From positions 125,116,001 through 125,180,000 of the forward strand of contig JBITNC010000001.1 of assembly GCA_050084985.1 (NCBI GenBank): a stretch of 64,000 nucleotides of DNA, given 5' to 3'. Made by a program: the position numbers and the translations under genes. The DNA is from Nageia nagi. Its lineage: Eukaryota; Plantae; Pinophyta. Positions 5,587-59,926 of this stretch are shown here, in pieces. How positions within the stretch are numbered: the first letter of the stretch is position 1; each line of letters begins with the position of its first letter. The notes under the pieces were generated by a model, which was not told the origin of the DNA, ran no database searches, and saw only the letters and a list, made by a program, of their open reading frames with translations.

Positions 5587-7520
5587 TATTGGTATGTTTT
5601 TCTTTCCTCACCTAAAACATGCATAAGATCTAGATGAAACAATGTTACTTGTTTCCACCTGAAAGGATTGGTTACCCCAAGTGCTTACATGGAATATGGA
5701 CTAGAGCACAATGGATAGAGATGAATGTTGTTAATTGTATACAAGGGAAATACATCGTCGACATTCGCTTCCATAAAGAGGAAAGATTGCAAATGTGAAC
5801 GAAAGCGAAGAAAGATCACAAATGCAAGGATAAATGCATAGGAATATGAATAATGAACTTATGAAGGTATCGCCAATGATGCGGTGTCCAACAGGCCATC
5901 TCTAGATTTTTTAAGAAAATGTAATCACTTATCAAGCTGGGCAGCAAATAGCAAAAGGCTCTAGTTACTACCACACAAGAGCAGGAAGTTGTAGTGTCTT
6001 TGATGGAAGATTGAATGGAATGGGGTGAAGGGAAATGACCAACATGTGAATACATAAGTCTAATTAAATGACATAGAAATAAGCTATACACCCCAGAATA
6101 CATCCACTTACGTGCAAATCATACAATGAACAATTAAAACCACTTCGAAAGATATTCAATTATCTTCTTCTAGAACTTGCAGTTTTCAAAGATAATGCAC
6201 TTAAGCAGTAAAAACCATTCAAACCAGCAAGAAAATTGTACAGGATAAGATGCATGATCCCACATATGATAGTCTTCACAGCATTTACTTTACAAAACCA
6301 TTCCAGAAAGAAATCAATTCTCAATGATATTCAATAATATAAACATAAACATTCCTTACTTGATTGCAGTACCATCAATATGATAGTCAAAATGCACCAG
6401 AGATATAAAAGTATGCAACCATGATATACAAAGAATCCCTTATGCCGCAAATTCTTGTGCAATGGAATGCTGAAATCTTTCATATGCAAGAATTCTCATA
6501 TATGCAACAATCTTTCCTTCATATATTTTGCCTTCAAAGCCTGCATTCATCATCATCCAATTACCGTCATTTTATCTGTTGTGAGAATAAAATCGTGGGA
6601 AATTCTCCCATATTGGGTGCATGTGGTCAAATAAGAATTCAGTGTTAGCCATGGAAGTTACCCTCACCCTACTGTGAAGGAGTAGGAAAACTAGGTAGGA
6701 GTTAATGTAGAATTTTTTGCCAGCCTACACGTTTATCAACTGTTGGGCCAAACAATTGTTGATCACTCTACTCCACCTTATGCCTTTACCACTATTGATC
6801 ATATCTATTAACCCTACGAACTCTAGCCAGAATTTGGTGTTGTCTTTCTATCCGGTCACTCTGGAGAGCATTGATATGATCTTGGAAACTGTAGGATACA
6901 ATTTTGTTCTCTTGGGTGTCACGAAGGCTTTCCTAGTAAGGTGCTTATGGTCATCAGCTAACCAATCTTTGATCGAAGCAGATGGAGGCTTCAAACTCTT
7001 GTAGTATCTGAAGGAGTCTTGCACACTATATGATATACCTTCACTTGTCCAAGCGAAGGCCAACTTTATTCCTTTCTCTGAGAAATCCATGATCACTACA
7101 TTATTTCTATCCAGGAGTCTCTGTCTTCTAGTGTTGTAATGCTTTCCTAGTTTGTAGCACAACTTTGGGAAGGGTGAGGCAAATGGCACCATAGATGCCT
7201 TTACTAGCAAAGATGATTTAAATGTGTCGTTTATTAGCAAAGCATGATCCATAAACTCTATCTTTGTCAATGTTTTGATTGGATCCTGTAATGACCCTAT
7301 TTTTAAGAATATCTTGCATTTGGGATTTTCCACAAATCTTTTCTCGTACAAGTCAGATATGGTCGTTGCACCTTCAGAATTGGATAGAGCATCTCGTGGC
7401 ATTTGTTTTAAGTGGTCACATGACCCCTTTTGGACAAGAAATGAAGGAGTTATGGCTACTTGAAGTTCGCCAGTCGGACCAGTCTTCCATATCGTGCCTA
7501 CACACGAAAATCCACTTAAC
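5587..7520 (-). mobile_element. Fragment of giant-LTR family carrying accessory ORF copy A
   Basis: 5587-5725 is the reverse complement of the LTR end at 48940-49064 and starts TATTGG (decayed TGTTGG). ORF 6848-7402 and its continuation past a stop (KDNTKFWLEFVGLIDMINSGKGIRWSRVINNCLAQQL...KKFYINSYLV) are homologous to ORFs 37908-38501 and 44338-45087. Confidence 0.75.
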
Positions 7521-21285: not shown

Positions 21286-24200
21286 GTGGTTGCGTCCAAT
21301 TGGTTTGTTCGAGGCAAGGGAAAGGGTTTGGACTTGCTAGGCCCCTCCTTTTCTGTAGAAGTCTTTCGAGTGGTCAACTCCTTGTATGTTTGTCCTCCCT
21401 TGAGGGATCTCATTGTCGGCTCCAAATCGTATGCAGCCCTAATAGTGTCATTAAGGCTCCTTTGTATGGATACCTTGACCATCCCCTGCAACGGCTCCAT
21501 CAATCCTTCTATGAAAAGGAATGTCAACCACTCCTCCAGAATGTTGTGGATCATCACTGCAACCTTTTGAAACTCGGACACATATTCTTCTACTACAGCA
21601 TGTTGTCTTAGAGATGTCAATTCTCTTAAATAGTCATTCTCCCTTTTTCTATCAAACCTCTTTACCAACCTCTTGGCAAACTCGTCGAAAGAGGTGATGT
21701 TTGAGTAATCCTGGCTGATTACTCCATGCTACCACCATTCGAGGGCATCACCCTCAAAGTGCAATGATGCAAAATGAATTGCATCCTCCTATACCATGTT
21801 TGGATTCAAAGTAAAGTAAGTTTGCAATTGATGCAACTAAGCCCTAGCTGTCATCCTCTTGTTGTCATATAGCGACACCTACATCTTATTGATTTTCTAT
21901 TGCAAGGTCCCTTTTGTCTCCCCACGAGGTTCTCTGGGAATGTGCTATGTGAGCTGCTCCTTTTCAGCCCTAAGATCTCCATGTAGCCGTTGAAGTTCAT
22001 GTGTCTCGTCAACCCTTGATCTAGCATGGAATAGTCTCTAAAAATCTGGTTTAACTCCAGAAGGCCAAGGATCCGACTCTTTGCTTCATCTGTGGACTTC
22101 TTAGCAAACATGGGTTTGGATGGTTTGGGGATAATGGGTTGCTCCCCTATCTTCGCAACTTCCTCATCTAGGAACCTCCATAGGAGAGGGGTTAGTTCCC
22201 TGCGGAGCTCTATGAGAATGTGGGTTCTGGATGACACATGGATCCATGATGAGTGGATCCTCTATCTCTCAAATTGTAGGATCTCCTCAAGCTTGACTCC
22301 CTCTTTGCCTTGTCCTCCCGTGGCTCCTCTTCTTTATCAGGGATAGGACATGGGGGGCTCACATGCCTTTCCGACATCTCTTGACCTTCAATGTGTTTGT
22401 GGACAGTGGTTAATTGTTTTTGCATGGTGGTGATGGCTCTTGTCATGTTGTGGATGGTCAAAATGAGCTTATTAAACTTTCTTTCCGATGTGGACTCTCT
22501 AACTGGAGTAGGGCTTCTCCTCCTAGTTAATGTGGTTCTGCTTCTTGTCTCCTCATTCTTTTGACCAAAATTGTCCTCATCATTGACTTCATTCATCCAT
22601 GGTCGATGGTCCTCCTCTTGGGCGGCTCTAGAAGGGGTCTCTTCATGTTGTGACTTTTCTTTGAGGAACCCATCTCTCTTTTGCTGCTAGATCTGGTTTA
22701 GTAGTTGTGAATGGAAGGTTTCATTCACGGGTTGGCCAAATCCAAGCTCTGATACCACTGTAAAATCCCAAATACAAATTCAAGTGCAATTAAAACCAAA
22801 CACACAAGTATGCACCAACGTCTGGCCAGGAAGGGCAAATACAAGCATTCAACACCTCAATATGCCAACGTTAGGGTTAGGGCATCAATTACAAGTCTAT
22901 ACAACACAATAATGCCAACGTCTAGCTACAACATGCATGAAAGGACAAATACACCACAATGTTGCAAATATAGACAAGTCCATAGCAGAATATGAGATCC
23001 AATAGCCCACAACTTGTATTAAGATGTATGATGAACAAAGATACAATACCAATCCAACAAGGCTCAACGTTGGCCTCCAGGGAGCCAACTAGGGCACAAC
23101 GAATATGCTCCATGCTGGATGAACGAAACATTGAATGGGATAGCCTCACTCCCTCATAATCTGAATCCTCTCCAGCAAAGGAGTTCTTTCCAAACCTTGG
23201 CGACCAATTGAATGGTAGAAGTGTGCCTCGGAATGCCATTGGATGGACTAAGGTGCTACATCAAAGACGTAAATCAACAAGATCCCTCAGCCTATTAACC
23301 CTCCTAGATGCTGCTCCTAGGGATGTTGCTTCACCCTGTGTCAAGACTTCTATCCTTTGGATGGTATGTGTAATAATCAATATCTGTATATCCAACAATG
23401 ATGATCGAAGGACTAATATAGCTTTCTTGGATTTGGATCTCACCTCAAAGTCATCACCCAATCGCGTCAAACCCCAATGATGGCACCTAGGAGTCATTCT
23501 AGGTCCAACGTGGGTATTTGAGCCTCCCTCATGCTCCATGTGGGTCCTCAAGCTCAACGTGGGTGTAGGGATGCATGTGTGGGTCTAGGAGGCATGCATG
23601 GGTGTCATGGGCCAATGTGGGGGTCTAGAAGTCTACCCAAGGCTTGCGCATGTGTACAAGTGCTCCTAATCTCAACGTTGGGGCCATTAAGTGATAATCC
23701 ATCCTCTAAGTGCTAAATAGGCCTTGTGATTCCCACAATCATGTTTTAGGATCTCCAAGTACATTAAAACACACTAAACTACACATGGGAGGGAGACGTC
23801 CCACTTGGGGCTCACAGTGAGGTCCAATGGACCTTTATATCTTCTATCCCAAGTTCTAACTAATAATTTATAATTAAATATGTACAAAGAGGGAATCTGT
23901 TGGATTCTCGAATTAATTACAATACTCAAAGGGGGACATCACAAGTGTTAAAGAGGAAATAAATAAGTTCTTAGATGTAGGATTTATCTTTCCTATAGAT
24001 AATTCAGAATGGGTTTCTCCTATTGTGGTATCTATAAAGAAGAATGGGAAGATAAGAGTATGTGTGGATTATTGGAAGTTGAATAAATTCACAAAGAAAG
24101 ATCGTTATCCTCTTCCTTTTTCAGATCAAATTTTGGATGAAGTGACAAGACATGATTGCTACAGTTTTGCAGACGGTTATAGTGGATATAACCAAGTTCC

Positions 24201-27225: not shown

Positions 27226-27553
27226 GTAAGTTTTCTCTAGAACATAGCTTCTATTGTAACTCATTAGTTCACTACAGAAAAGAAACTTTGAAAGTTGAAA
27301 TATTTGAATAAAAAGCTTTTATTATGAATAGGTAGAAATTGGTTTTCATAATGGATTTCATTGCATTAGGTACCACATTTTAATGCAACTAATTATTATT
27401 ATTATTTTAATCATTGTTTTCTTATTAGATATTGCAACTCATTATGATAGAAAATTAATCTATGAGTCAACAATTAATCTCTATAGAAGCTTTGATCATT
27501 AGGATCTTAATTTTTTTTATATAAAGTCTTATGAATTGAAATGTGAAAAGCAG

Positions 27554-27853
27554 GAAATGAGATCACATTATGTGAGAAATCAGTTAGAAATCGTAGGTTT
27601 AGTGCCATATTGGTTTGACATCGAACAAGGATTAGCTGTGCGGAACAGAATTGAAATGCAGTCACTCTTTCTTCTTACTGGACCAAATGGTGGTGGAAAG
27701 TCTAGCATACTTAGATCCATTTGTGCGGCAGCACTGCTTGGCATGTGTGGTTTAATGGTTCCTGCTGAAAAAGCTACCATTCCACATTTTGATTCGATCA
27801 TGCTCCACATGCTGTCATATGACAGCCCTGCAGATGGGAAAAGCTCATTCCAG
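27554..27853 (+). CDS. MSH1: MSH1 exon, MutS ATPase domain with Walker A
   Basis: Encodes GLVPYWFD...MQSLFLLTGPNGGGKSSILRSICAAALLG...SYDSPADGKSSFQ, with a CAG|gtatca donor. The exact acceptor is ambiguous among in-frame AGs giving starts at 27527, 27551, 27554 or 27584. Confidence 0.92.
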
Positions 27854-28390
27854 GTATCATGTGTTTCATTTGTTTATTGGTTATGAGCATACCGCCTTTA
27901 TTGCAGTCCTTTTTGAGATAATGCCTTTTTGGGCATCCTATATATGTAACCTATGGTATAACTTTTTTACAAAAGTAAATAGAATCATCATTAGTTGTTT
28001 TCTTATTCACTCAGTCTGTTCATCATATAGGTTTACTCGTTTGAAGAATGTCTTTAGGGCAGTAAGTCCTGAGATGAATTTGTACTTAAATCAATTGTAT
28101 ATCTGATTAGATTTTTCTGTTGGGCATCATAAGTACTGTAAACATATTTCATATATTTCTAAAACTAGACAGGAATCCACATAATGAGTTGTTTTCAGAT
28201 ATGCAGAATATTGTATGGTTTCTACATGTGATTGTGCATGCAAACTTAATAGTTTTATAAAAGTTAATAAGTCTCACCTTATGTTCCTTATCCAACTTCA
28301 ACTGGAAGCAGTGACTCTTCACTTTGCATTTTGATTTTGTTTGATTGGGTCTAATGAAAATGGTCAATACTGTCATGGGCAGGTATTGAC

Positions 28391-33323: not shown

Positions 33324-36273
33324 GTAATGACTTCCTTCTTACCAACCTGTGTCTACGCGAAGGTATTATTCAAGGAAGTTTCCCTGGATTTCTAAACCCA
33401 ATTATATCTATCTTCCTACTACTATTGTAGAACCAAATATATACCTTTGAGGTCATATGAATGAAATAGTTTTGGAACGTGGAGGATACCTATATCCTTT
33501 TGAGTTGGTCATCATTTTTTTATAGGTTGTGTAAAATCAACTTGGCAATTCTCTAATTAGTCTCCAATCTGTTTCTTTTTTTTTAATATATTTTGCAGAT
33601 ATTGAGATTGAATGGTCGGAGCATAGGTTTCAATCCTTTGCTAAATTTTATATGGTAGCTCATGCTATGACTTATTTATTGGAGAATCTATCTATAAAAG
33701 AAACATTGGCCTTCTATATCAAAGATTGGATAATATTCCTTTTCCATTAGAAGTTTTAAACATCTGATGTACAAGAACTTCTTTCCTTTCATTGTTACAT
33801 TTGGTTTCGAGTGTATTACTAGCTTGATTTATTCTATTCTTGGAGGTTTCAAGCTTAAAATCGTGCAATTGTTTTACACTAGTTGGTTTATATGGGTCCC
33901 TCTCTTGAATGACAACTCTTATATAATTGTAGACACAAAATAAAGAACAATGTATTATGTCTATGAAATGAAAATAGATTAATATCAATATGTAGTATAG
34001 ATTCTAGCAATTAGGATTATACAAACTTATGAGAGGAGATCTAGAGGAAGCTTATGTGGAGGGTGGAGGATTGAAGACTTGCTACTATACAAGTTGTGAT
34101 CTTGGAGGGCAAACCCTAGCTTCCAAATGATAGTTTTGGAGATAATTTTGAATCAATGATATTGAGGATGATTCTATTTTGGATGAGTCTAGAATAGATA
34201 TGTGGACATTTTGGAATGACTTGGTTGACTTGTGGAGATTGTTGAAGTTTGGGACAAAAGCATTTGTGTTTTGAGCCTCCAATGCTAGAGTATTAGGTGC
34301 TTTAGGCTTAGGTGCCATAATATTGGGCGTTATGGCTTGGAGGCATGTTTCAGCTTACACTTCTTTTGGATATGCATTTCGGCTCTTTGATGTTTCTGTG
34401 ATTCAACTACGATAATAAAAGATGATATTGCATTTTTCTTGCTTGATCTTTGATAATGATAATTCTTGAACTTCCATCATATCTGAAATGAGCAATTGGG
34501 AGTGCTTTGTAAATAATTCATAAATTGGATTTTGAGTTTATCGACGTGGACTCACTTAGAATAATGTGCATAGAAGAAAATGATAATTTAAAGTAATTTA
34601 CGTAGCTTTGATCTACCCAAAGCAGTCCAAATTAACATTTTACATAAATCAAATCAAACACTTAAATTAAACTACAGGTCAACTGCAAATTTATGTCTAC
34701 AATAACCAAGCATATTGTAAAATGTCTCAAATATATGTCGACAATTAGGACTCAATAGCATGTGTTAAAATAAATGTTGTGTAATAATCAAATCATTTGT
34801 GACAACAAATAATAGCCATAAGAAAGCGAGATGCATGCGAATTACAAGAATAGCGAAGCTGGAACGAAGTCGATTAGGGCTTTTCAAGTGTGCGGATTAT
34901 GGATTGTAGATTATCGAAGCTGTAATAAAGCGGTAACAAAGCTGAAATGTAACTAAATGATGTCCGCAATGCAATGAATAAGGCACAAAGCAGACCAAAA
35001 CCTAAGCCTCTGTGCGAATGGGTCAACATTATCACTAGGGATCATGCCAAAGTCAAGGAAGACATCGAAGTTGATCTTGAGATCAAGATAGTTGATAATA
35101 AAGCTTGCATAACAGTCCCAAAAGATATTGTGAATCTTGAAACTGATCGATAAAATAATAGTTTGATAGAAAAGTTTGTGGGATTTAGACCAAGTTTACA
35201 TATAATTCAAAGACGAATATTTGAAAAATGGAAAAGAAAGGAGCGAGTGGATCTAGTGGTGCTGCCAAGAGAATTTTTGCTCTTCGATTTCAAGTGTGAA
35301 GAAGATATGGCAAAGGTCCTAGAGTTAGGGACATGGTTCTGTTGTGCCTGCACAACACCCCCAAAAATTTTGCATTTTTGAGGACCCTCATCATACTGAA
35401 AGACAAAGGCATGAAAAATTTTATAAGTCAAATACATGAGTTTCAAAGCCAAACAAGGATAAATGTGGTATATTTTCATATTCAAGTGAAAACAAGTCCA
35501 AAAATATCATTTTTGTCTTAGGTGCATGTTTTTGGGGACATGCTTTTGCATGTACCAAAAATGGTGCGACCATCTTCATTTTGCATGTATCTTGTCAATT
35601 CTTGCGTTTTCATGTCCAAAATTGCATTTTCATGTCAAAATTGCACCCATCATATGTAAAAGGCATCCCCTTCCATTGCATATCATTTTTGGGGGTCATT
35701 TTGGTCATTTTTTGTGAAATTTAGCATTTTCTGTTCTTGGGCGCAGCCGTGCATGTATTTCATGTAGTGAAAAAAGCACGTACCAAAAAAGGTGCATCTA
35801 AGTGGATGAGGTGTTTCCAACACTTGGCATTTTTTTGGAAAATTGGGAAAAAAGAGCTTGAGTGCATGTTTTTGGGCACATGCTTTTGCATGTACCAAGA
35901 ACGGTGCGCCCACCCCCTCATGTGCATAAAATTGACTAACTATCAAAATTTTGGGACGTCCACTATGGGCTTGTTGTGATTGAAACACAACATCCTCTAA
36001 AATCCTGCGATTTCAGGGACCCTCAATGCACCAATGTATATACTTCGTTTTGTCGTCATCAGTCCCACCCAAGTTGTGTCTCAAAGACCGAGATTCATGA
36101 ACAACTCCTTATAGTTCAAGCCTCTTCCTTCGTCTAGGGTTAGTCATGTCAATTTAAGAATTTCAAAATCTCTAAAAATGGCTAAGTTTGGGAAGGGTAA
36201 AAGTCGATCTTAGGTGAAGTAGGGAGTCTAGGAAGAGTTAAAGCCTGATCAAAGCAAATTGGGCATCTCCAAG

Positions 36274-37240
36274 GGTTGGCGCATGGTTTTAAAAGACAAA
36301 ATCTTGTCTTTTTGAACCATGCGATTGGACTTGGAGGTCTTCTAGATAGGAGGGAAGGCTCAAGACAGAATTTGGGCATTTGCAAGCCCAACGCATTCCT
36401 CCAGGAGACAAAAGCTTGTCTTTCCTAGGCATGCACCAAATACAGGGAGCAAAATGGACCAAAAGTAAGCACGAAGAACCTAAGACAAAGGCACTACAAG
36501 GTTGGCGCATGGTTTGAAAAGACAAAATCTTGGCTTTTTGAACCATGCAACTTGGCCAGGAAGGCAAGTTGAGCAAGTTTGGAGGTCGGAAAATGAAATA
36601 GTCACCCAGGAGGCTTGTGCATGCTTCAAAAAGACAAAATCTTGTCTTTTTGAACCATGCGCCAAGCCTAGAAAGGTTGCCAGTTTGAGGAACGTGGAAA
36701 ATTTGACAAGTCCTGGACCCGAGAAACTCAAGACCAACTCAAGCATACACAGAGGGGCTGGAACATGGTCTCAAAAGACAAATTCTTGACTTTTTGAGAT
36801 ATGTGCTAAGCCCAGGAAGCCTTTAGGATCTGAGAAAGGTAAAAATTTGGCTAAGGCATGAGTACTTAAAGATCAAATTCTGGAAAACAGGCCAACTGGA
36901 GGCTGACACGCTTCAAAATGACAAAATCTTGTCTTTTTGAACCATGTGACTAGGTTGGATGGATAGGCAAGGCTGGCACATGCCTCAAAAAGTCACAAAC
37001 TTGACTTTTGGGAGCATGTGCCAAGCCCACAGGTTGCCCAGGTTGAAATGAAACATCAAAATTGATAAGTCCAGCCGATTGGAAGACCAGAAATCAGGAA
37101 AAATCAGGTTACTTGGTGAGTTAGGTGATCAAGGTAAGCAAGCATGAAGTTAGGAGACCCAACGTTGGAAGCATACAAACTCCCAGGGTTGGAGCATGGT
37201 TCAAAAAGTCACCTTTGTCTTTTTTTTTCATGCGCCAAGG
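36274..37240. repeat. Array of ~8 palindromic ~58-bp hairpin units separated by non-repetitive spacers, inside the LTR
   Basis: Consensus GGCTTGGCGCATGGTTCAAAAAGACAA-AATC-TTGTCTTTTTGAACCATGCGCCAAGCC. Units start at about 36274, 36393, 36500, 36612, 36756, 36901, 36971 and 37187. Confidence 0.85.
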
Positions 37241-37390
37241 CAGGTTGAGCATTAAAACCCAAACATTCAGGCATAGGTGACTTTACATGAGTTTCTAGGT
37301 TGACACACATTTCGAGGTTGGCCAGGTGGAAGGCTATGATGAGGTGTGTTAGTAACCCTAGCCGACTAGGGCAAGCTGGAAGCCAAGAGG

Positions 37391-37401
37391 GCTATAAATA
37401 C
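37391..37401 (+). promoter_or_regulatory. Candidate TATA box for the LTR-internal accessory gene
   Basis: GGCTATAAATA lies between the hairpin array and the ATG at 37622. Function is inferred from position only. Confidence 0.5.
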
Positions 37402-37621
37402 AAGCTTGAGGACTTCATTTTCTCAAATTCAAAACTTGCCCCTCTTCTATTCTTGCACCAGGATAGCAGCGAATTGCAAATTTTTGTGCTCAAACATCAT
37501 CATTCATTCATCCTAGGGCTTGCGCAAGCACTTGGGGGGCACGACCCTCCAACGAGGGTGTCATCTTCATCCGGAAACCCAGGTAACATTCTTGAGGAGC
37601 CACGTTGCAAGTGAGAAAACC

Positions 37622-40403
37622 ATGACCTTCTCTAAGGGCAATTTGGCTTCGGATTTCGCTAGGGATCTTGAGCGGTTGAAATAGGATTGTGTCATCTTCG
37701 TTCGTGAGACACAACAAGCCCTTCCCCAAGGGGCAAAATTCTCGAGAAACGGTTTTGCAACCATCGGAGATATAGATTGGCAAAATGTTGACCCTACGCA
37801 GATGAGGGAGAGCACTCATGGTCTTCCTATCACCGACTTGAAGCAGGATATTGTCTACTTCTCGGAACTCTCCACTTGCACATTAGTCCCATTCACAACC
37901 CCAAAAATTGTGCATGGAAGTCGGTCACCACTGGCAGAAAGGGGAGAGAATCCTTCGAGACATCAAAGGAGACATCATAATGAATTTCAGCCCGGGCGTC
38001 ATCAAAGCAGCATACCAGTGGACCTCTGAAGGAGAAGTTGAATATAGTGAGGCTAGGTCATTAGCTTGTTACCAAGAGACCCTTAGGGCAGTTGTCGCTA
38101 TTAAGAGTTGGATGTTGGAGGAGCATCATGGATTGCAAAGAAACGCACTCATTAATGCTCCTCGCTCCGACTTCTATCTCGTAGTTGAGTTGATGATTCT
38201 CTTGTTGTCCAGAGTCCTTGGGAAGGAAGACGCTTCAAAGTTTAGGAAAGAGTTCTTTGGGTTCATTCTAGAGATCGCCAGAGGAAGGAGGATCAGGCGG
38301 AGCAAGGTGTTGAGCAACTCCATAGCTGATCAATTGTTGTCCTTAGGTATTGCTCGTAAATTCTATCTCAATTCATACCTGGTATACATGTTGCTTCACT
38401 GTAAGTATAGAGCGATAGCTCATGGTGAGACGGATAGAAAGAGGGACCTACTCCATTTGGAAGTGCTACCCCAAATGGAAGTTGGAGAGGAGATGGGATA
38501 GTTTTATGATGAAATACGATGGATGGGAGTACGAAATATACAAGGAACTAAAAGGGGAGATCACGGTTGCTAGGATCTCCAATTCAGCCCAAGATGCTTT
38601 GAAGAAGTATGGGGACTTCTTCCTCCATCACGAACACTATTCCTACATTCGTATACATGGATCAGTTATCCAACCCTATTAATTGCCAAGATTCGTGAGT
38701 AATAGGATGCTATTAATGGAGATGATGAGGCAATTGGCCTTTCTACACAAGCATGGTAGAAGAAATCGGCCACCTCCAATTTGTCGATTGCTGTAGGAGA
38801 ATACCAGTGCAAGTTTTGGACGGATGTGGACACCATGAAAGAAGAGTTGGCCAAATTCAATTTCAAGAAAATGCCTATTGTCGACCACTACGATCCGGAT
38901 TCTAGAATGCATTCGTTCTTCATGAAGGAAAGGAAGAAAACTAAGGAGCATAAGTACTTGTAGACAAGGAGCCTTTCCGGAATATCAGCAATGAGATAGA
39001 AATAAAGAAGATAAGAGAAAGGGTACACAAGGATGCAAATGATCAGCAACATCGTGTCGAAGCTACCATCAACAACAAGATGAATCCGTAGAGATATTTG
39101 TAAAAATTCATAAGATAGCAGCACAAAGCCATCTATCGAGAAGGACAAGGAGCCAATATTCGAGATAGTCCAAAAGAGGGCTCCATTAAAGAGAACCCCA
39201 CAGTCACAAGCTATAGGAACTTCAAGTGAACATGTTGAACAAAGAGAAGAGAGACCCTCAAAGAGAATGGAGAAGAATGCTACTACTATTCCAGAAGTAG
39301 TTGTGGAGACTTATTAGCCATCACCCACGAATGAGTGGGGTGTCAACATGGAGGAGTGTCTAGATGTGTTTAATATGGATGTTGGGGAAGAATTTGGAGC
39401 AGAAGAAAAGAACGACCAGATTGGAGAATGCTCCACTCGCCTAGGGAAAACCCAAACATATGTACACTTAGCTAAGAACGCTATACACATCAAGACCATT
39501 ATAGATGATAAGGAGAATCCGCAATGTCTTGAAGATCGTCGATAGATTAACCAAATCATCAACACAGGTCCGATTGGTCGAAAACATGTAATCATCTCCA
39601 ATGTTGAGGCCATTGCCAAAGATGGTATGATGAAAGATAAAGAGATTAAAGGTCTGAAGAAGGAGTTAGCCACACAAAGGAAGTTGACTAAGGAATTAGA
39701 ATTGGCTAAGGTGCCCATTGAAGAGCTCTGAAAAGTTAAGCCCCTTAAGGAGGGTATGATTGCAATTAAACAAAAGCATATAGAGGAGGTCTTGGTAGTA
39801 ATACATCAGTTCATTGGAGCACTAGAGAGGGTAGCGTTCGAGGAGCAAAAGCTCAAGGATATCATTGTGGAGAGAACCAATCTCCTTAGGATCTTGGATT
39901 CTAGACAGCCTATGATCATGTAGTTCAAGATGACACGGAATCGGGAGCTTGAAGATATAAAGTTTTGTGAATAATATTGGTTTTATTTGGGGGTAGTCAA
40001 CCAAATAAGCACCTGATTTCAGGAGGTGCAAAAGGATGTTCAAAAGCTCAACGACAAGGCAAACACTTGTCTTGAGCAGATGGAGTTCCAGGTAAAGTTT
40101 CTTGACGATGATGCTATCATCCGTGACAAAGACCTTGTAGTGGCGGAAGTGAGACACTTCCTTTATAGTCTGATCATGACTGAGGACATTAATACTTTCC
40201 AGACGACTAGTCACTTGGAGCATTTGCTCAAAGCTCATGCGTGGGAGAAAGACATGATGAGGATTGTGGACAAGGTAGAGCGTGGTGTGTGAAGAATGGA
40301 CCAAGGCTATCAAAGATGCTACATGGATTGGAGCTCACAACTAAATTCTTGGATGATGACTTTGATGGACGTGTAGAGGCGTTGGGCACACCAACTGCCT
40401 AGT
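37622..40403 (+). pseudogene. LTR-encoded uncharacterised accessory gene, copy B (decayed)
   Basis: ATG at 37622, then collinear ORF pieces 37802, 37908, 38422, 38781, 39348 and 40026, broken by stops and frameshifts. Conserved block RKEFFGFI...KFYLNSYLVYMLLH...YSYIRIHG...LPRFV, then a charged linker and coiled-coil-like tail. Lies wholly inside the LTR 35972-41473. Confidence 0.7.
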
Positions 40404-43400
40404 CATATTATTTAGTGTCTTTTATATATTATTTGATGGTTATTTTTGGAAACTTTAATTTATTTATTAATAAATTCCTAAGTTTGTGATGGATAAGGAT
40501 TTGCTTCCACAAATTTGGATGATATCTTGTAATGCCATGTGGCATATTTCTGGTGGACCATATTTTATTTCTTGGAAAATGTAATTATGGTTAGGGCAAC
40601 ACTTTGGGTTGCACTAAAACTAGATATATCCCATTTGGGATCATTACTACTTAAAATAATATTCTAAAAACTTACAAGTTTTCCCTTTTCGCAATTGTGA
40701 TATAATTTCAAGGAATTGAAGTGAGCTTGTTTCATTTGTGAATGAGTGTTACATTTTAATGCTATCTTGAGTATTTGAGGCATTTTATAAACCTTCTAGG
40801 TGGATAAAAGAATGCTTGCATATCTTTAGAAATATTTCAAAAAGTGTTTAAGTGTGATGTTTCATAGTTTGCACTTAGGATTAATATGTTCTGATGATGA
40901 CTTGTGTATGCCGTTTAACATAGGAACTTCACCCAATGATTGAGTCATACCCACGCCTTACCTCTTCTTTTCATTGCCTTAGCGCCAAGCTCCTCTTGTC
41001 ATGACATTCGTGTTATCGCCTTTCAAGCTGGAATTGGGGTGTGTGGAACTTCTACCTTACTTGCACAAGTTCAATCTCAAAAGGTCATATTAATCAGTGA
41101 AACATAGCCCTAGAGCCCCGCTCATATATCGTCTTTTCACAGTCTTTTTTATTTTCCTTTTTATTTTCTTTGTGTGGCTTTTGCAATAGAACTTTTTTTT
41201 ATTTTCCCCTTTTTTTTAGAAACAATTATACCTAGATTAGGGACCCTTCGAGTCCTTGATTAACAAAATTATATTTTGAGTTGGCAACAACTTTAAACAT
41301 CTCCACTATTTCATCTTAGTGAACACTTGCACACTCCATTTTCAAACCTTTGAGGTAGAAGTTCTCATAGTGGGTAGGGGTTACGCCCTACCAATCAGGT
41401 GTTGGAGTCTTTCCATGAGCCTTGTGACACCATTTGCTGATCCGCAAGGGTAGGAAAGAAAAAGCCCCCAACATAAATTGGTGCTAGAAGAAGGGCCTCA
41501 AACTATTTCTTCGTCCAGTAAAATTTTGTTTCTCTACTTATATTTCGCCAAGATAGGACCTAAAAAGCACTGTCTTATAACTTGAGGTCAACTAAAGATA
41601 AGGTTCAGCCAAAAGAAGAATCGTAGAGTTCTCTAGAGACCATTGAAGCCTATATTCCAAGTCTCGACAATACCTCCACTTCTACCTTATCTGACATATC
41701 AATCACTAGCCCTAGCTCATCGAAAAACTTGGTTCCTTTCTTGACTAACACACAACCAAGTGTTTAAAACCAAGCTATTGTGCAAATACAACCTTCGCTG
41801 CAACAACAACCACAATTGGGTCCTCAACCGCAAGCCAGAGCCAACCCGCAGCAAAGGAGAAGAATGGCCAATCCACCTCCTGCACCTCCTACTTGGTTGA
41901 AATCAAGTTCTATAAGTGTTCTTGGAGCTCAAAATGACATCCCAAAAGATTACCAGAAACACTTCCAAAAGTACAACCCTGATAGTCTCACGTCAGCGGT
42001 AGACCACATCCAGTCATACATTGATTCATTGACCAGACTCTACATTGAACATGAGGATGTGGCGTGCAGAATGTTTCCATCTACTCTAGAGGGTCATGCT
42101 TGAGATTGGTATCGCAGATTTACCTTGAGATCTATCACATCATGGACACAACTAGGAGAAGCATTCCTGCAAAGATTTCAAATACCGGTAGATTCAGATT
42201 TATTATATCACCAATTTGTAAATATTGAAATGTTCCCTCATGAACTAGTCAGAAATTTTAATGACAAATTCCACAATGCCTATGGGAAAGTAGTGCAACC
42301 ACATACAGCTTCCGATGCTACGAATGTACATAAGGACACTTGATCCCCTCACAACAGCCTTCGTTAGAAGAGAAGCAGGCATCACAACGCTAGAACAGGC
42401 TTATGCCTCTGCGACTACCATTGAAAGGCAGCTCACTCAAAACACCGAAGGGTAAAAGGCCACTATTCTTATGCATTTGTTGGGCAATTTGAGCCTAAAC
42501 GTTGCTATTGCTCCTCCACAACCCGTCGCTCTAAGTCCTGCCCAAACGTCATTGCGAAATATCCCCATGACCTCAAATGTAGTCCGGCCTAACCCTTTAG
42601 CCCTCACACACACCATGCATGCCCAATAATCCCACTTCGTCATCCAGTCCACTGAGCACCGACTTGATCACCCAACTCATCACTCACTTATCACAGCTGT
42701 CCCATCCCAACCTTGCACATAATCCTTCCGGGCAGGGAGAGCTCAACGTCTTAAAGCAATTTTTGGGTGTACCTTCAAAAGATGCAAAAGATCCCAAACC
42801 ACCCAAAAGGGACCAAGAGCTTGTTAAGAAAGAGCAAGAGCTCGCTAGGCGCGAAAGAGAGTTGGCTAAGAGGGAGAAGGATTAGAATGACTTTAAGACA
42901 CTTTTGTCCAAGATGGTTGAAAATAACAGAGGGCAGAACAATGCTGGGCTCAATCAATAGCCTGCGCCCAATAACGATCATCAGTGCAATCCCAACTTTC
43001 AAAGGGGAAATATACCTTGGAATATCGGTTCTAATAATGGCATGGGTACAATACCCAATCCAGTAGCAAGGGATCCAGGGCCCTCTCAAGTGAATAATGT
43101 TGACTTGACAGAAATTGTGTTGACCACCTCGTGTAGGATTCATAGCACTGCCCATTCAGAATCTACCTGTCTAGAGTTCACTTATGCCATTAATATGCTT
43201 CGTCATGAAAGAAACAATTGGGAACTCACCCAACCAGAATCCGAGTCTCCTAATACACATAGTGATGCTTTGATGTTTGAAGTTTATACCAGTACTAAAG
43301 ATGAAACACAAGATGAGGAGATACCCGAAACTCACCCAGTCGTCTCTCAACCTGTTTTTGCTACATGAGAATCCTAGGAGATTCGGCTATGCTTTCAGGA

Positions 43401-44389
43401 GAAGAGATCGAGAGCCATTGATTGAATCTAATCCTCCTAATGGTCTCTAGGTACCTTTGAACCAAGTCTCTTCAAATAATCCCCCTCGACCTGGGCCGGT
43501 AGCACAACCAAGCATTCTTCAGAGGCAACCGACGTCTAGTATTCCCAGGCCTCAACAGGCTTAACCATCACGGGGGAGTCCCCTTCATCACGGCCAACCG
43601 GGGAGTACTCGTAAGAAATAGACTCAAGCCAGGGAAGAGCTGCGGGAGAGCTCTTTTGATATCATTGAAACTCTAAAGCATACTAAAGTTAGTATGAACT
43701 TGATGGATTTATTGGAGTATGAAGAGCCTCGCGAACGGGTTATTAGTCATCTCAAGTCTAAGCAAACACAAAAGAAGGAATGGAGGAAAGTTTTAGAACG
43801 ACAAGTACAAATAACATCTCCATTGGTTGTTGAAGACCCCGCGGTTGCTCAAGTCCAAATGGCCTTGGAGAAAGCTAAGATACACACGCTAAGGAGAGCA
43901 ATTCCCCTTTGCTTGATCACATTGAGATTTGTTGGTAAAAACTTGCATATTGTATGCTGGACTTTGGCCCAAGAGCAAACATAATACCATGGGAAGTATG
44001 CAAGCCTTTGAACTTACCCATTGCAGAGAGTCCTGATGGTATCACTCAATTGGATGATACGCTTGTAAAAGTAGTGGGAATGATCCACAACTTACGCATC
44101 CAAATTGCATCCGAGCTAAGGATTGAAAGAGATATAGATGTACAAGTGGTTCAGATGCCACCCAAATACGGGATGTTGCTTAGCAGAGAATGGTCAAAGA
44201 TGTTGAATGGATTCTGGTCCACATGCTTCAAATATTTATGGCTAACATGGAGAGGCTTGTCGAATCAAATTAAGATATAAGGAGAGCCTTATCTCAGAGA
44301 CCTCATCATTGAATATAACAATATCAGTCAAGTAGCGGTGACGAAGCGAGATTTGGGCATTTGTTGCCTTGAAGTTAATAGACCTCCTC

Positions 44390-47300
44390 CTGATACTGAT
44401 TGGGGAAATATTGATCCCATCCAGACCAATGCATCCACTGCTAGTATCAGTGAAGAAGATTTACTTGATGAAATCATCCACTCCTGTGGGTTGTTTAATG
44501 CGACAATGATTCCTTTTGTTGTTCCTTTTCCTGACTTATGCTACGAGGTAGCCAAGCGATGTAAATATGATATGAGAGTTCTCTTAGACATTGAAGGGAA
44601 TGTGATCATGGACTTCTCTCCAGCAAGGAATGAAGCTGCTTTTGGTTGGAGAAGATATGGAGATGAGTATACTATAGCCCAGTCAAAGGAATTCCATGAT
44701 AGTACCACCAGATCGGGAGACTATATAAGACTTTGGCTTTATGAAGACTACCAAGGACTCCAAAGCCAGAGGCTGGTTAGTGCTCATAGGGAAGAATTCC
44801 TCCCTATAGTGTCCAAGTTAATTACTCTAATGTGGGTCACAGGCCAAGAAAATGATACTAAGTATAGGAAGGAGTTCACTGGATTCATTGCTATGATTAG
44901 CTCAGGGAGAGCTGTACGATGGAGTAGAGTGATCACTGATACCTTGCATCACCAGTTGGCCTACTTGGGCTCTTCCAAAAGGTTTTATAAGAACTACTAC
45001 TTAGTATATTTGTTATTACATGGAAAATTCAGATCCAAGGAACATGTACATGAAAGAAAGTTAGGTGAGAAAGGCATCTCTGTGTAGAACATGTACCACA
45101 AGTGGTGGTATAATAACAAGTTTAGGCACTACTATGAGAGGGAATGATTAGTGGGAGTATGCTATTTACAAAGAGATCAAAGGAGAATCGGTAGTCGAGG
45201 ATTTTTGATGCAACCATCCAAGCCATCATCGTAGATGCAGATTTCTATTTGCAGTATACTGATTACATGTACATCAGAGTCTATGGCTTTGAAGAGTAGC
45301 CTCTTGTCGTACCCAGATATGCTAGTGATAGGCTAGTCCTCATGGAGTTTGCTAGGCAGTTGTGGAGAAAGAAGGATGCAACGATTAACTTTCCCATTTC
45401 TATTGCAAGTTATGTTTTTCAGACTTGGGTTGAGGCCAAGAGCATGCTTAAGGAGCTGCAGCAGTACATTTTCTATAAGGAGGAAACAATGAGAAATTAT
45501 GATCCTAGAGGTGTCATTGCTCATTTCTACAACATTGTATTCCCAAAACCTATAATATACAAGCATAAATGTTTGGGGAATGTGGAAAAGTATAGGAATG
45601 TGCGAGAAGAGGAGAAGATCATGAAGATTGATGCTCTTTTGAGCAAGGATAAGGCTCCTCTCCAAGTAGAAAAGAGGACGTATCAAGGGCCCAGAGTTGT
45701 GAAAGAGAGGCCAAAAGAGGTCCCACTCAGGATCAAGACAACCCCTCTTGCCAGTGATGCAGCTCCACAAGTCAAGGAATCCTTGCTTCCCATTGGAAAA
45801 AGACAAGGACCTTTAGGGCAATATGCTTCAATGGGATCCAACAAATGTAATGTGGTGGCTGATGTAGCCAAGATAAGCCAACAGGTGGTTGATCTTAGGA
45901 ATGCAGGTTACTCAAATGCCCCTTTGAGTGTGTTGGAGCAAGCTTGTGCCAGTGATTCCCCTGTTAGAAAACCAACTCCACAAAGACCCTCTCGGCTTCC
46001 TGGAAGCAGAGAGAAGGTTCCCCGATTACAACCAAGTTCCAATTCTTCTAGTTCCTCATCCTCCTCTTCTTCAGATGAACAAGATACTGAAGAACTAGGC
46101 CACGATGAAGAAGGCTCGGAAGTTGAAGTGAGCCAAGAAGAAGAAGAGAGCTACGATGAAGAAGATGATGATGAGTACCCCGATCGAGAGAATGTAACTG
46201 TAGGTGTTTCTGCACTTGATGATACCGAGATTGATACTTTCTCAAATGATGATGATTTATTTATTGATGTAGAAACTTGTGATGAAGACGTCTAGATTGT
46301 TGGAGTGAGGTATGCCAAAGAAGTAGACGCTTCCAAGCCCTTTCCTGCATAACACAGAAGAAAATCACACCGATCTTCTCATAAGGCTCTAGTAAAGAGA
46401 ACCAGCCATTAGAGATCTCAGCCCCATAGGAAAGTGATATCTTTAGGGGGTGGTGGTGGAGATGAGGAAGATGAAGGTGAAACAAAAGAGTAGAAGAAGA
46501 AAAAGAAGGGGACCGAGCACCAGGGCAAGGAGGTTGCCCTTATTCAATCCACTTCGACTAAAGAGGTCAAGAAAGTGAATAAAAGCAGGATTTTAGTGCA
46601 AAGGCTTACTCCCAAACCACCCATTGAACATCCATAGCTTGACTTGGGCACCTGCTTGAGAGCCTAAGCATGAGCACGATTCACTATAAAGATGTTGATC
46701 CATATCTGAGGTCTAAGGACGAAGAGGAGGAGCTCTCTGATGGTGAGAAGAGTAGATACTTCTGTTTCTACTAGTAGGAAGGAGATCTCCATTAGCGATT
46801 ATTATTCCAAGGAGAAGTATCCCAAAGGACCTGAAGATTGTATGATAGAGACCTTCAAGATGCCTGCAAAGATAGGCCTGTCAGCAAGGAAGCATATAGT
46901 CACCCAAAATGCAGTTGTTATGGAGTAAGAAGGCTATGAGGCCAATTAGGAGGTGAGGAGATTGAAGATGGAACTTACAGTTAGTAGAAAAATCATAAAG
47001 GAGTTCCAAACTATAAGTATCACTCTTTTAGAACTCAAGAAACAAGCTTCATATCATGTGGGTCGGGAGTTGATGAAGGATTCCTTAAAAAAGGAGATGA
47101 TGGAGACCATTGAGAAGCTTGCTTCTCAAATCTATAGCATTATTGAGGAAGGAGTTGAGATAAGAGATTTGAAGTCCCAAATAACATACCTCCTCAAGAA
47201 GCTCGATGGCTATCTCCCTACCATCACCAACTTGTAGCGTACCTTTGCTGACAGAACTGAAAAATTGGTCTAGTACCATTAATTTATGTACCTACACGAT

Positions 47301-47733
47301 TGGTTGAAGCACACATTGGACAAGTACCACGTGGTGCTTAAAATGAGAATACCCTTGAGGAAGGAAGTAGAGGAGCAGATGTCTCATTGTGTACCTGTTG
47401 AAGTTCCATGGGGAAGATAGTAACGTGTGGAAAAAAGAGGCGATTTTGGTAGAGGCACAAAATCTCATTCAGGAGCATTTTGAGGTTGAAGATCTCAATT
47501 TGTTGAAGGCAGGCAAACCCATTCATCACGAGAGGCAAATGGTCATATGGAGATTTCAAATGCAAGCTACAACCAAATAGATCGAGGATTATTATAGGCA
47601 AAATAATAGCATCATGGGCATGGTTTCCAGAGGAGTACGGAAGACCTTGGCTTTCTTGGAAGAGACCATAGAGTCATACGGCCTCATCGATGAAGAGTGG
47701 AACTCCATAGGAGCTGGATCAAGTCAGGCCTAG
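44390..47733 (+). pseudogene. LTR-encoded uncharacterised accessory gene, copy C (decayed)
   Basis: ORFs 44338-45087, 45342-46295, 46740, 46953 and 47389. Same motifs as copy B (YRKEFTGFI, RWSRV, RFYKNYYLVYLLLH, YIRVYG, MEFARQL, YDP), then a Ser/acidic tract and coiled-coil-like region. Confidence 0.7.
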
Positions 47734-50700
47734 ATTTGATCCACTTGCAGATTCTGTCTGCAATTGTCTTTTCAATTGTTTAATGTATCTAGTTCCTAGT
47801 TTCAGACTTCATTTACTTGATTTGACTGGTGCAGCGATGAGTATTTGCTCCTGCTGGATCAAATTTGTCAGACTCATTTATGGATCTGATCGATGCAGGA
47901 ATGAGGTTTTGCTTCTGTCGGTTCAAATGTTAGACTTTTTCAGCATATCTGATTTCATTTTGCATAGAGTAGAGATAGATTAGACATTTTTGTGGCTGTC
48001 GCATTTATATTTTGTTAGTTTTAGATGCCATTTGCATAGTTATTTGTTATACAATCCGATTTTGCATTGGTATGTGTGTTGCATGTGAGCACACCATATC
48101 AGATTTGATGCCTTTAGGGCAACACCTCTAGTGGCCTATTTATACCCCACTCGGGCCATTTAGAAGGGGATTTGTTGCATGAAATTTTTTGCATATTGGT
48201 AATTGCATAGCAGACTTTTGCCATACTGATTTTGCATATTGTTGTTCAATCTTTGGCTTATTTTGAAATATTACATACTGAGAGTTTTGCAATCAAAAGA
48301 AAGGAATGCTCCTGTTCATGTCATTGAGTATCTTTATAAGTTGATTTTTTTTTTGGATGGTGCTCTAAAGAAATGCTATGAAATCTGTCATTCGTGGGAT
48401 CATGCATCTTATCTTGTAAGAGTTTCTTACTAGTTTGAATGATTTTTACTGCTTAAGTGCATTCTCTTTAAAAATTAAGAGTTCTAGGAGAAGAAAGTTG
48501 AATATCTTTTGAAGTGGTTTAAATTGTTCATTGCATGGTTTGCACATACATGAATGTATTTTGTGGTGTATAGCTTATCTCTATGTCATTCACCTAGAAT
48601 ATATGTATTCACATGTTGATCATTTCCCTTCATTCTCATTTCCACCCAGTCTTCCATCATAGACCCTACAACTTCTTGTCTCGTCTAGTGCCAACTTGAG
48701 CTTTGCTATTTGCTGCTAGGCTTGATAAGTGAATACATCTTTTTTAAGGAATTCGGAGATGACTTGCCAAGATACTTCATCATTGGTGACACTTTCATAA
48801 GCTCATTTTTACATTCTTTTGCACTTATCCTTGCATCTGTGATCTTTCCTTGCTTTCGTTCACACTCGTAGTCTTTCCTCTTTTGTGGAAAAAAACTTAG
48901 ATGGTGAGTCTCAATTGTATACGGTTCAATAGCATGCATCTCTATCCACTATTCTCGCGTCAATATTCCATGTGAGCGCTTAGGGTAACCAATCCTTTCA
49001 GGTGGAAACAAGTAATGTTGTTTCCTCCACATCTTATGCATGTTTTGGTGAGGAAAGAAAAGTATTTGTAGAAAAGGATTTATACTTAAACATTGGCATA
49101 AGGGATTTAGACCAGAGGTTGAAAACACTGATCTGAAAATAGGTTCCTTGGTAGAAAAGGATTTGTACTTAAACAGTGGCATAAGGGATTTAGACCAGAG
49201 GTTGAAAACATTGATCTGATCCCAACTTGGGTTAGCCTTCCAAACTTGCCAATAGAGTTTTGGAATGCAAGTATCATCGCTAGAATTGCAAATGGGATTG
49301 GTTCATTGGTTTGAATAGAGAAGGCAACTAGGTGTCAAAGTAGTATGATTGATGCTCGTGTTTGTGTCAATATGGACATAACTAAGGAACTAAGGAAGAG
49401 TATCTTTATTGATGAAGAAGATGGAGGGACTTGGGAGCAAGAAATAGTATATGAAAACCTTCCTATTCGCTATAATATGTGGAGGCAATTTGACTATTTT
49501 GCTAGGGCTGCCCATTAAAGAAGAAAGAATCAAAAAGAGATGAGAAGGCATGGAGACCTGTTCAAGGACATATCAATAAAATACATGATCGGTCTCAGGT
49601 ACAAAAACAATCATAGGAGCAAACTCAAAATACAAAAGGTCAAAAATTCGAAAGTAGAAACCCTTATAATGCATTAAGTATGTTCGAAGGCAATGATTCG
49701 GAAGAAGGGCAACTTGACAATAGTGAGGATGATTATGAAAAAGAGCGAAACTACAATGAACCGACATAAATGGAAATGGATGAAAACTCAGGAAAGATGG
49801 TTCCAAAAAGAAAAAGATAGAGGAATGAAGCAGGTCAGGGAGAAGGAACTCTACAAGGTACAAAATAGGAGAAAGAAGATAAGGAACTCTACAAGGTACA
49901 CAATAGGAGAAACAAGATATTTCATTAAGACAACATCACCAATATAAGAAGACGACAAATGTGGGTCAAAATCTTGTGGGAACATAAGAGGACATCAAAA
50001 TAAATTGCAAATAGCTTTCAGCATATGTTGGATGTGCATGGGCACCTTCTTGTCCCTAGCAATAGGTCTTAAGGATCAAATTAAACTTTTGTAGGGCTGT
50101 ATTTGAGCTACAATAAAGCTATGACTGGCATACTGTAAATTGGAGGTTTAGGCTAGTTTTTGGCTACCATCAGGTTATGGTTAGGTAGCATTAGTGAAAT
50201 ACTTCAATCCAATGGATACACAATGGTATGTCTTTGAACCAGGTTTTGGGATCCTATTAAAACCCACACTTTTTTGATAATAGAATTTATCCTTATTATA
50301 AAAAAAAATCCTATGTAGTTCACATTTAGCTCACTATGCATTGTTCAACACAATTTTCTTTACTCACTTATGTTCATCTTTAAGCCTCTTCCTACATAGC
50401 AACCCTTGCTACAGAACCATAAATTCGAAGTTGCACCTTGATCATTCTATTTAGCAAAATATAGTTGCCATATCTTCTGTCTACATGCTTCAGTAATTGC
50501 TTCCTTCAAAATCCTGTGGAAATTTATAAATAAAAATCTATTTGTAACAGCAATGAAAAAGCAAAAGGGGAAAGTGGAAAAATAGAAGTAGAACAATAGC
50601 TGAAAACTGAGAAAAAAGAAGATAAATATGTTGTAAGATACAACTAAAAAAGCATCAAATAGATTTGGTATTTGCAGTTTATAAATTGCACATTCCGAGC

Positions 50701-54002: not shown

Positions 54003-55651
54003 TGTAACATCCCCTTTTGAAGAAAATTAAGGAAATTTGGGATCCTTGGTACCCTTTTTGTAAATATTTTGTTTTGCATTAGTAGTAACTTGGGATAGAA
54101 AAATAATGGTCCATTGGACCCACATTGTGAGCCCCAAGGTGGGATGTTTCAGCATAGGATGAGTTGTTTTATTGTTATTTTTGTACTCGGAGATCCTAAA
54201 AACGGAATGTGGGAATCTCAAGACTTTGGCATGGTTGGACACCTATGACCCCAATGTTGGACTTGGGGAGCATCATTGCACTAGTACACCTACGCCACAC
54301 TTGGGGAAGATTCTAGACCCCCATGTGGCCCATGATGACATCTGCTTGGCATGAGGAGCCTCTAGAAGGCTAACGATGGGCATGCATGACACCTAGGTGC
54401 ACATCTAACCCCACGTTGGGCATTTGAGGGCCTCAAGGAGGCTAATGTTGGGCATGCATGACATCCAGGTGCACATCTAATCCTACATTGGGCATTTGAG
54501 GGCCTCTAGGATGCTAACATTGGGGAATGTTATACAAGGCATTGGAGCATCATTGTGAGGATAAGCTAATTTTGATATTAAAACTATTTCTTCTCTTCGG
54601 AGTTTCTAAAGACTTGGTGGCATTAAGCACCCTTGGGTTGTGTAGTTTAGGGAGAGATTAGGATGCTTGGAACACCTTCTATTCTGTGGTTGAGGTGATT
54701 GCTCATGCTGTGAGGTTGCCCTTCCTTGAGGCGTCCATAGTGGTCAACATCTTTGAATCCATCTGGTGGCATTTCAGAATTGCACTTGTTCTCTTCATCG
54801 AGAGCCAACCTATGAGGAAGCCCATCAGTGTGGCATCCATAGATCTGGTAGAGTGTAGTTGTTTTGCAACATATCTTTTGTAGTGATCAGATTTGCATAA
54901 GTGTGTGACCTAGTTGGTTCCTTGGAGTCCAATGTTGAGCCATTTGGGCCTGGTATTGCTTTGTACTCATCATTTCTCCATTAATTGAGCATCACCACAC
55001 TTGATTTCCCATTATTGTCTCATTTTAATGTGAATTTGGTGTAATATTGCTTCCTTGAGTGTGATGTCATGTTTCTTGGTCCATTAATGATGAATTTTGC
55101 ATGATATCTTGATGCCCTTATGTGTCGTTGTGCTTATTGGAGTGTTTATTGGCTAAGGGAGAGAGACGTTGTGGATTTGGCATATTTTATTGCATGTTTG
55201 ATGCCCTAGATCAGTTCATAGCATAGTTGGAAAAATCGGATCAGAATCGGATAAAATCGCCTAAAATTGGAATCGGCCAAGCAAACAATCCAATTTTTTT
55301 CAAATAAGTGTTTATTCGAATTTTTCCAACTTCGATTTTATTGAAAAAAAAATCGCGATTTTTTGCGAAGAAATCGGTATTGAATCGATCCACAATTTTT
55401 TGCCGATTTTTTTCCCCTTTTTTTGCCAATTTTATCCGATTTTTTAAGATTTAGCTAAAATCAAAGAAATTCTTTCATTTTTTCTCATGTCGATTTTTTG
55501 CCAATTTTATCCGGTTTTTCAAAAAACCCGAATCCTGCAGCCAAACGATTCCGATTTTTCTATGGTTTGTAGAATCTATAAGGCCATAATTTGATATTTG
55601 TTGGTGAATATTTGGCTAAACCTTGCATTGGAGGATTTTTGGGATTTTACA
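54003..55651 (+). mobile_element. Solo LTR related to the 4078 / 22759 family, containing a MITE
   Basis: TGTAACATCCCC...TTTTACA termini and TSD tttgt/tttat. Shares gagccccaag(g)tggga and CCCACGTTGGGC subrepeats with 4078-5309. Confidence 0.75.
55222..55564. mobile_element. hAT-type MITE (343 bp)
   Basis: TIRs CATAG(TTGG)AAAAATCGGA / TCCGATTTTTCTATG and many subterminal AATCGG/CCGATT motifs. 8-bp TSD gttcatag/gtttgtag. Confidence 0.75.
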
Positions 55652-56803: not shown

Positions 56804-57667
56804 AATGTCAAAGGTTACAGGGTCTCTCTCATCTTGTAGAAGAGTGAATGGTCCTTGAGATTCTTAACAGTATTCCATGAGGGAAGACATGGCCTCTATG
56901 ATCGATCATTATCAGCCCAGGTATTAGTTGCATCAAAAGGACATTTGGGTCCCTCAACGCTTGAGAAAGGAGGTGATTAATCTAGTGGTGTTTGAGACCT
57001 CCCACAAGGTTTGTTGTTTGTGCATTGTTGCTTGTTGAAGGTACAAAGCCAGGCCCCTTTAGTCAAGGTTAGGGAAGAAAATAGAAAGTGACTCTCCTGA
57101 ATCTTTGGATAAGCTATAAGACCTTCCTTGAATCTCAGTCTTAGCAAAGATCTGTCATTTTCTTTTATTTTTAGGCTTTCAGCCATGGTCCTCCATCTTC
57201 AAGCTGGAGTCATGAGATCTGTTTATCGAGATATGAGCATTCACTTAGTCTCTTTCAGTGTATTTGATCTCAGGAGGTGCTAGATGCTTGCCTTCTCTTG
57301 AAAGCATGTCTCTAGAACATTCATTCGGAAGTTCTTTATGACTTATGAAGAGCCTCCCTGTTTGTTTTATGTCTTTTCATAGACCTAAAAGGTTTGTGGA
57401 GAGGAAATATATGAAAGTATCAGATACTTGTGTGTTTTTTATGCAGGAAAACACCCTTACAAGTCCAATGATAACTACTGATATGATTATTTAAATTTAC
57501 TGCAGCTGTTAACTCTCATTGGCACTTTTTGTATTTACGGAATTCGTAGCATGTCTGTATTATATTTTGAATAAAGAAGTTTTGATGATGACCTTACCAT
57601 TTCATGCATGAGGAAGTTGTGTCTTGGCGTTTTTCTCGACTAATGATCATTATTTTCTTTGTTTCAG

Positions 57668-58412: not shown

Positions 58413-58551
58413 GCAAGTAGATCTTCTTTTGCCTATATTCTGATACTTGTTTTCAGCTGTATTCTATATGATATAGATGTTTTACTCGCTTATGATCAGA
58501 ATTTGAGAAGTTTATTTTGAGTATAATTGTTTGTTAAATTTCATTTGGCAG

Positions 58552-59551: not shown

Positions 59552-59925
59552 GCTATTAATGCTTGATAACTAGCCTTCTCCCAAGTGCAGTTTTTTTGAA
59601 GCACCGTGGAGAAGTGGTGTCATCAATGAAAATATATTTCAATGTAAAGAGAGAAACCTCAATGCCTGCAACATTATTTTTTGTTTTCGTTTTTTTTTCA
59701 TGTAGATCAAGAGGTTGCAAAGTGGAGCCATATGTATTGGGTCTCAATTTTGAAGTATGAAATTAGTAAGATTAACGAATGAGCCAAATTGAATGTTATG
59801 TTTTTAAATTTCTGAAGGTCCAACAAATTAAAAGCATTTGGTACCCCTCTTTATGCAAAACAAATGTAAAGGTTTTTGAAATACAACTTTTGATGAAATT
59901 CTAACTGCATTAAATTAGAGAGAAC

Positions 59926-59926
<1 letters not shown>

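Follow-up and report, generated by a model that had tools for sequence, protein, structure and literature searches.

Genes that lie in the U3 part of an LTR and are duplicated with it are known from animal retroviruses, as sag of MMTV and nef of HIV, and these encode much smaller proteins that are unrelated to the one considered here. The extra ORFs of plant Gypsy elements are described as internal, and the formation of solo LTRs is therefore assumed to erase coding capacity. Elements of the TatII lineage (gymnosperm OTA/Tat), as classified in REXdb (PMC6317226), resemble the element described below in their large size and in the possession of a sense-strand extra ORF; they have a 5-bp TSD, which is seen here in the outer relative. 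Among 27 TatII elements, extra ORFs were recorded as 5'-forward in 23% and as 3'-forward in 26% (PMC6317226, Additional file 5); the marks of OTA/TatII elements include a 4/5-bp TSD and a PBS of the Asp or Asn type, and the tRNA-Asn PBS occurs in 15% of TatII and 12% of Athila elements (PMC6317226). The available portions of that paper's text and Additional files 4 and 5 place no ORF inside an LTR, and the portion available of a second paper gives no extra ORF for the TatII lineage (PMC4408406). In Athila, too, the genomic RNA carries a sense-strand accessory ORF at its 3' end (the 3' extra ORF, PF03078 / PF20167, Transposase_32), but each element is described as having it a single time, after pol and ahead of the 3' LTR, and its Pfam match is absent here.

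Other plant Gypsy accessory genes, such as Retand TRP28, Ogre PMD and Retrosat2 ORF0, often occur close to repeat arrays, and DNA binding has been proposed for TRP28 (PMC11963269, in the part available). The TRP28 ORFs differ from the gene described here in being internal and antisense, in elements with LTRs of 315-1194 bp, and Retrosat2 ORF0 differs in lying upstream of gag-pol (PMC3485330, in part). Among DNA transposons, VANC21 of the Mutator-like VANDAL21, together with MAIN/PMD, offers a parallel, in that a TE encodes an accessory protein with a coiled-coil-like region next to a repeat array specific to its family. According to the available parts of two reports, VANC binds short motifs of family-specific tandem repeats and strips methylation (PMC5735166), and dimerisation of VANC21 is predicted (PMC13547354). 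VANDAL21 differs in being a eudicot DNA transposon, and its VANC21 binds non-palindromic 9-mers. A gene inside a plant LTR is not described in the literature that was searched, which also spanned the available parts of PMC13477047, PMC11539532, PMC11728184, PMC5418596 and bioRxiv 10.1101/2024.04.02.587720 and 10.64898/2026.08.24.746577, with Repbase and Additional files 1 and 3 of PMC6317226 outside its scope.

Here we describe a stretch of 64,000 nucleotides from the conifer Nageia nagi (the window) in which a giant LTR carries palindromes, a TATA box and a broken gene that was once under selection. On balance we favor the reading that this gene belongs to U3 and, as predicted models of the protein suggest, encoded a DNA-binding protein of PMD/VANC-like type that regulated the family to which it belongs.

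Setting and organization of the nested elements

Exons of a MutS-family gene, presumably MSH1-like, lie on the forward strand at 9646-10582, 27503-27886 and 57647-58420 (PF00488 matches 27503-27883 and 57647-58417), with retroelements of tens of kb between them, and the nested elements are located within an intron of this gene of ~30 kb. A 13.8-kb insertion flanked by the TSD GGTTC interrupts a LINE DUF4283 domain in register (Table 1), and the empty insertion site was bridged by contigs in two of four runs. Within this outer insertion, the inner LTR opens with TGTTG at 35972 and closes with CCCCCAACA at 41473, and a PBS that we take to be of the tRNA-Asn type starts 5 nt beyond its end. The resulting order is LTR start, palindromes, TATA1, gene, TATA2, LTR end, PBS and gag. 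An LTR bounded by TGTTG and CAACA and followed by a PBS and gag had been proposed in the original prediction, and the termini, the PBS and the PF03732 match bear this out; we read 35972-41473 as the LTR at the 5' end of a Gypsy element, likely one of gymnosperm Tat/Athila type. The protease-like region, for which Pfam gave no match, stops at a deletion near 44380, which removed both the RT, whose phylogeny would tell OTA/TatII membership, and the aRH that such elements have between protease and RT.

Table 1. Coordinates of the features of the nested elements and their relatives in the window
Feature	Position	Strand	Basis or remark
Third gene homolog, fragmentary	5590..7285	-	domain at 7285-~6500, then a deletion, then a related LTR end
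LINE ORF1 remnant, first half of DUF4283, target of the outer insertion	35040..35339	+	PF14111 profile 1-50, E 6.5e-5
Left TSD GGTTC	35335..35339	+	sequence; right partner at 49142-49146
Outer LTR, 5' part	35340..35971 (632 bp)	+	TGTTGTG...CACAACA start; repeats D10/D11, folds
Inner 5' LTR, 5502 bp, TG...CA	35972..41473	+	termini; colinear with L001 over 39069-41473
Eight palindromes, ~40 bp, 4-nt centre	36270..37240	.	repeats and folds; spacing 112, 114, 112, 144, 143, 72, 216
TATA box 1, TATAAATA	37393..37400	+	sequence; 229 bp upstream of the ATG
Decayed accessory gene, ~930 codons	37622..40402	+	N-terminal domain (conserved), then a charged linker and a helical tail
Globular domain of the gene, conserved; fold predicted as PMD/VANC-like	37769..38921	+	homology to outer and third copies; folds, searches
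TATA-like box 2, degenerate in the inner copy	40621..40628	+	intact at the aligned place in relatives
PBS TGGTGCTAGAAGAAGGG	41479..41496	+	starts 5 nt beyond the LTR end
gag capsid region, inner element	41864..42340	+	PF03732, E 7e-11
Decayed protease-like region	43939..44380	+	recognised by eye; stops at the deletion junction
Outer gene homolog, 5' end lost	44392..47700 (end approximate)	+	~40% identity in the domain
Outer TATA-like box 2 to outer LTR end	48137..49141	+	79% to 5598-6418
Right TSD GGTTC and second half of LINE DUF4283	49142..49500	+	PF14111 profile 55-124, E 3e-16

The outer element belongs to a related family. Its LTR start is 72% identical to that of the inner LTR over 54 bp, its own palindromes (35517-35572 and 35857-35912) differ from the inner ones, and the two families are unlike both in protein and in palindrome. 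The deletion near 44380 fused the inner protease region to the conserved domain of the outer gene and took away whatever lay upstream of that domain. The outer LTR had been predicted to carry a diverged homolog in the same position, which would have made the layout family-wide; the homolog is there, at ~40% identity in the domain, but because of the deletion the outer unit (35340-49141) is no continuous LTR, is too rearranged to show such a layout and alone cannot place the gene. The 3' end of this unit reads AAATA. Its last bases include, at 49065-49136, a 72-bp copy (94%) of the right flank (49148-49219), which resembles the filler DNA of break repair. The inner element landed just past the outer LTR's palindromes, i.e., in the LTR of a related family.

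The accessory gene: decay and past selection

The gene runs from an ATG at 37622 to a TAG stop at 40400-40402. The sense coding region of ~2.8 kb that had been predicted is present, with its domain, linker and tail, but its reading frame is broken by six frame changes and by internal stops, of which there are at least 12. This inner copy is dead, and the outer and third copies are broken as well. The comparison of dN/dS among copies that had been suggested was run between the window gene and L001, an independent copy, and indicates that the gene was formerly under purifying selection. Over 354 of 362 codon pairs (the eight with stops were dropped), in codon blocks chosen from in-frame tblastx matches, pN was 0.156 and pS 0.710, for a pN/pS of 0.22, with 69, 48 and 169 differences at codon positions 1, 2 and 3; the remaining five frames gave 0.89, 1.19, 0.87, 1.42 and, for the mirror frame, 0.25. 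We quote pN/pS because the JC-corrected dN/dS of 0.08 (bootstrap 0.00-0.14) is near saturation. The charged low-complexity linker of L001 (its positions 74-628) is ~490 bp longer than that of the window copy, which shows that the family is variable in the length of its linker.

A profile search among 1.84 billion representatives returned 91 homologs at E <=0.001, and the 10 of these whose entries were consulted all proved to be unnamed singletons. No long homolog emerged from protein searches aimed at such sequences, which is weak evidence, and another search gave three unnamed matches.

Predicted fold and probable type of protein

It is fairly probable, judging from the predicted models, that the conserved domain has a PMD/VANC-related fold. 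VANC21 (PDB 9lnk) was the top structural match for both models, although a weak one at 5-6% identity, and the sole domain-wide structural match is a DNA-bound TE regulator. Foldseek against PDB and BFVD returned nothing at E <=0.001, and a profile search of PDB sequences gave no match. The VANC21 match lends weak, independent support to the earlier guess of a DNA-binding or anti-silencing function. In a Pfam check of the kind proposed with that guess, Transposase_32, PMD, DUF1985 and ATHILA yielded no matches in the window ORFs or in the 24 of the 91 homologs scanned.

The gene could instead lie in the LTR and encode an accessory protein of the Athila-ORF1/Transposase_32 type, with a structural or particle role rather than that of a DNA-binding regulator, in which case the palindromes would be sites for host factors, would form RNA structures or would have expanded neutrally. 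This would agree with the Atlas, in which, of the named clusters, those that score best for the window domain (0.82-0.84) belong to Transposase_32 and ATHILA, and with the weakness of the VANC21 match; the role of such extra ORFs is given as unknown in the available part of PMC7264820. That the only match spanning the domain is a DNA-bound regulator argues the other way, as does the hydropathy of the protein, whose best 19-residue value was 1.57 over the five segments scanned (38510-39100 lay outside the scan), i.e., no strong membrane segment among them, which would make a classical envelope unlikely. We regard this structural role as appreciably less probable than that of a regulator, while it is the most credible of the alternatives.

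Position of the gene relative to the LTR

Very probably, the gene lies inside the LTR, as had been predicted. From the gene's tail through the LTR end, L001 is colinear with the window (67% over 2510 columns, 39069-41473), and what follows its LTR end is a Copia gag fragment and not a PBS, which identifies L001 as a 3' or solo LTR; the LTR end is flanked by non-PBS sequence in both loci found (L001 and L002). On the 5' side, contigs covered all 30 bins from 36950 to 38000 in each of the four runs, single records span the 5' leader with the ATG (37431-37742) and the last palindrome with TATA1 (37105-37406), and contigs run from the array through TATA1 to the ATG without a junction among the 24 of 457 loose ends and 32 of 3749 pieces listed. 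The continuity of the LTR was thus pieced together from overlapping contigs on the 5' side and L001 on the 3' side, no single record spanning it. Summed contig depth over 35974-41817 (X1 335-5524) greatly exceeds that over gag-protease (17-81) in all four runs, which fits an LTR location and was left uncounted because depth is no copy number. A full element was absent from the 104 loci compared, among which the matches were L001 and L002 only. Viral and prokaryote collections yielded nothing related apart from one chance match, and three further searches returned 100 loci, none and one locus.

If the gene were an internal 3' ORF, a polypurine tract followed by a TG start would have to separate it from the LTR promoter. 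In the window, L002 and the outer element, the AT-rich stretch between the gene stop and TATA2 has neither a polypurine tract nor a TG start that is conserved, and L001 alone has a single, non-conserved run of nine purines; this argues against an internal ORF. A candidate tract after TATA2, AAGGGGAT, was rejected, as L001 and L002 read on with TAGACA and not TG. The same result bears on the suggestion that 35972-41473 is a mosaic or tandem, in which an ordinary 3' extra ORF and a ~1-kb LTR shared with the downstream element became joined to a foreign LTR start. The window is much rearranged (the deletion near 44380, the nested insertions), an internal position is the usual one for extra ORFs (PMC7264820 and PMC6317226, in the parts available), and near 40440 L002 starts with ATGTTG where L001 has AAGAAAAGA-TG. 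We nonetheless consider a mosaic improbable, given the lack of a conserved tract or TG start, the contigs of other genomes that traverse the array, TATA1 and the ATG, and the fact that the first 1.6 kb of the LTR is without a counterpart in its last 1 kb.

The TATA box predicted at 37393 is indeed found there, and from its position it is likely the promoter of the LTR-borne gene. TATA2, which was overlooked in the first reading, has kept an intact sequence in three relatives, namely L001, L002 and the outer element (48137), where it lies 850-1005 bp upstream of the LTR end; it is read, from this conservation, as the likely promoter of the genomic RNA, which would place the gene in U3. That TATA1, perfect where TATA2 is degenerate in the window copy, is the genomic promoter and the gene part of R/U5 is very improbable, since in all three relatives examined TATA2 is intact and its distance to the LTR end hardly varies, and since gag would otherwise follow a 930-codon ORF.

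Palindromes and a possible mode of action

The hairpin array predicted for the LTR was recovered as eight palindromes at 36274-37240, and their 22-nt core, at <=3 mismatches, has five sites as compared to none in 100 shuffles. The spacings of 72, 143, 144 and 216 are multiples of ~72 bp, and spacings of 112-114 are also present.

Under the reading that we favor, a U3 gene for a regulator of the family, the genomic RNA would start past TATA2 and bear the gene once, 3' of the polypurine tract, so that each of the two LTRs would receive a copy during reverse transcription. TATA1 would yield a separate mRNA, and solo LTRs would retain a complete transcription unit of promoter, gene and 3' end. The gene probably goes back to a 3' extra ORF of the Athila type, which came to lie in U3 once the polypurine tract had shifted upstream of it. 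By analogy with VANC, the protein may be a dimerising, sequence-specific binder of its family's palindromes, those upstream of the gene's own promoter, which boosts the family's transcription or works against its silencing, in the way that VANC acts for VANDAL. That it binds the array and counters silencing is a tentative proposal, and it is still more doubtful that gymnosperm Gypsy LTRs each carry a VANC-like anti-silencing cassette of a gene with co-evolving palindromic targets.

Implications

If the gene does lie in the LTR, solo LTRs of this family would keep coding capacity; if the fold is VANC/PMD-like, such regulators would reach beyond eudicot DNA transposons. Should the cassette reading hold, each insertion would double the cassette and solo LTRs would keep supplying the protein in trans, giving a plant counterpart of the U3-encoded retroviral accessory genes and a case of sequence-specific counter-silencing in an LTR retrotransposon. 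The presence of the gene beside family-specific palindromes makes the role of a Gypsy extra ORF testable, since it supplies a candidate for the protein, candidates for its sites and, as control, another family whose sites differ. LTR finders that limit LTR length to a few kb miscount such elements, and the frequencies of 5'-forward and 3'-forward ORFs in TatII may include catalogued elements that have the same layout, unrecognised.

Other repeats in the window

An LTR pair of ~1.16 kb (18063-19225 and 22783-23944, 90% identical) encloses a minus-strand gag and protease without RT, and related LTRs occur at 4078-5482 and 54052-54335. A Gypsy RT and RNase H fragment on the forward strand (PF00078, PF17917; 23917-25127) abuts an LTR end directly. 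A degenerate tandem array with a unit of ~65-70 bp is found at 62310-63840, and an AT microsatellite at 59924-60201.
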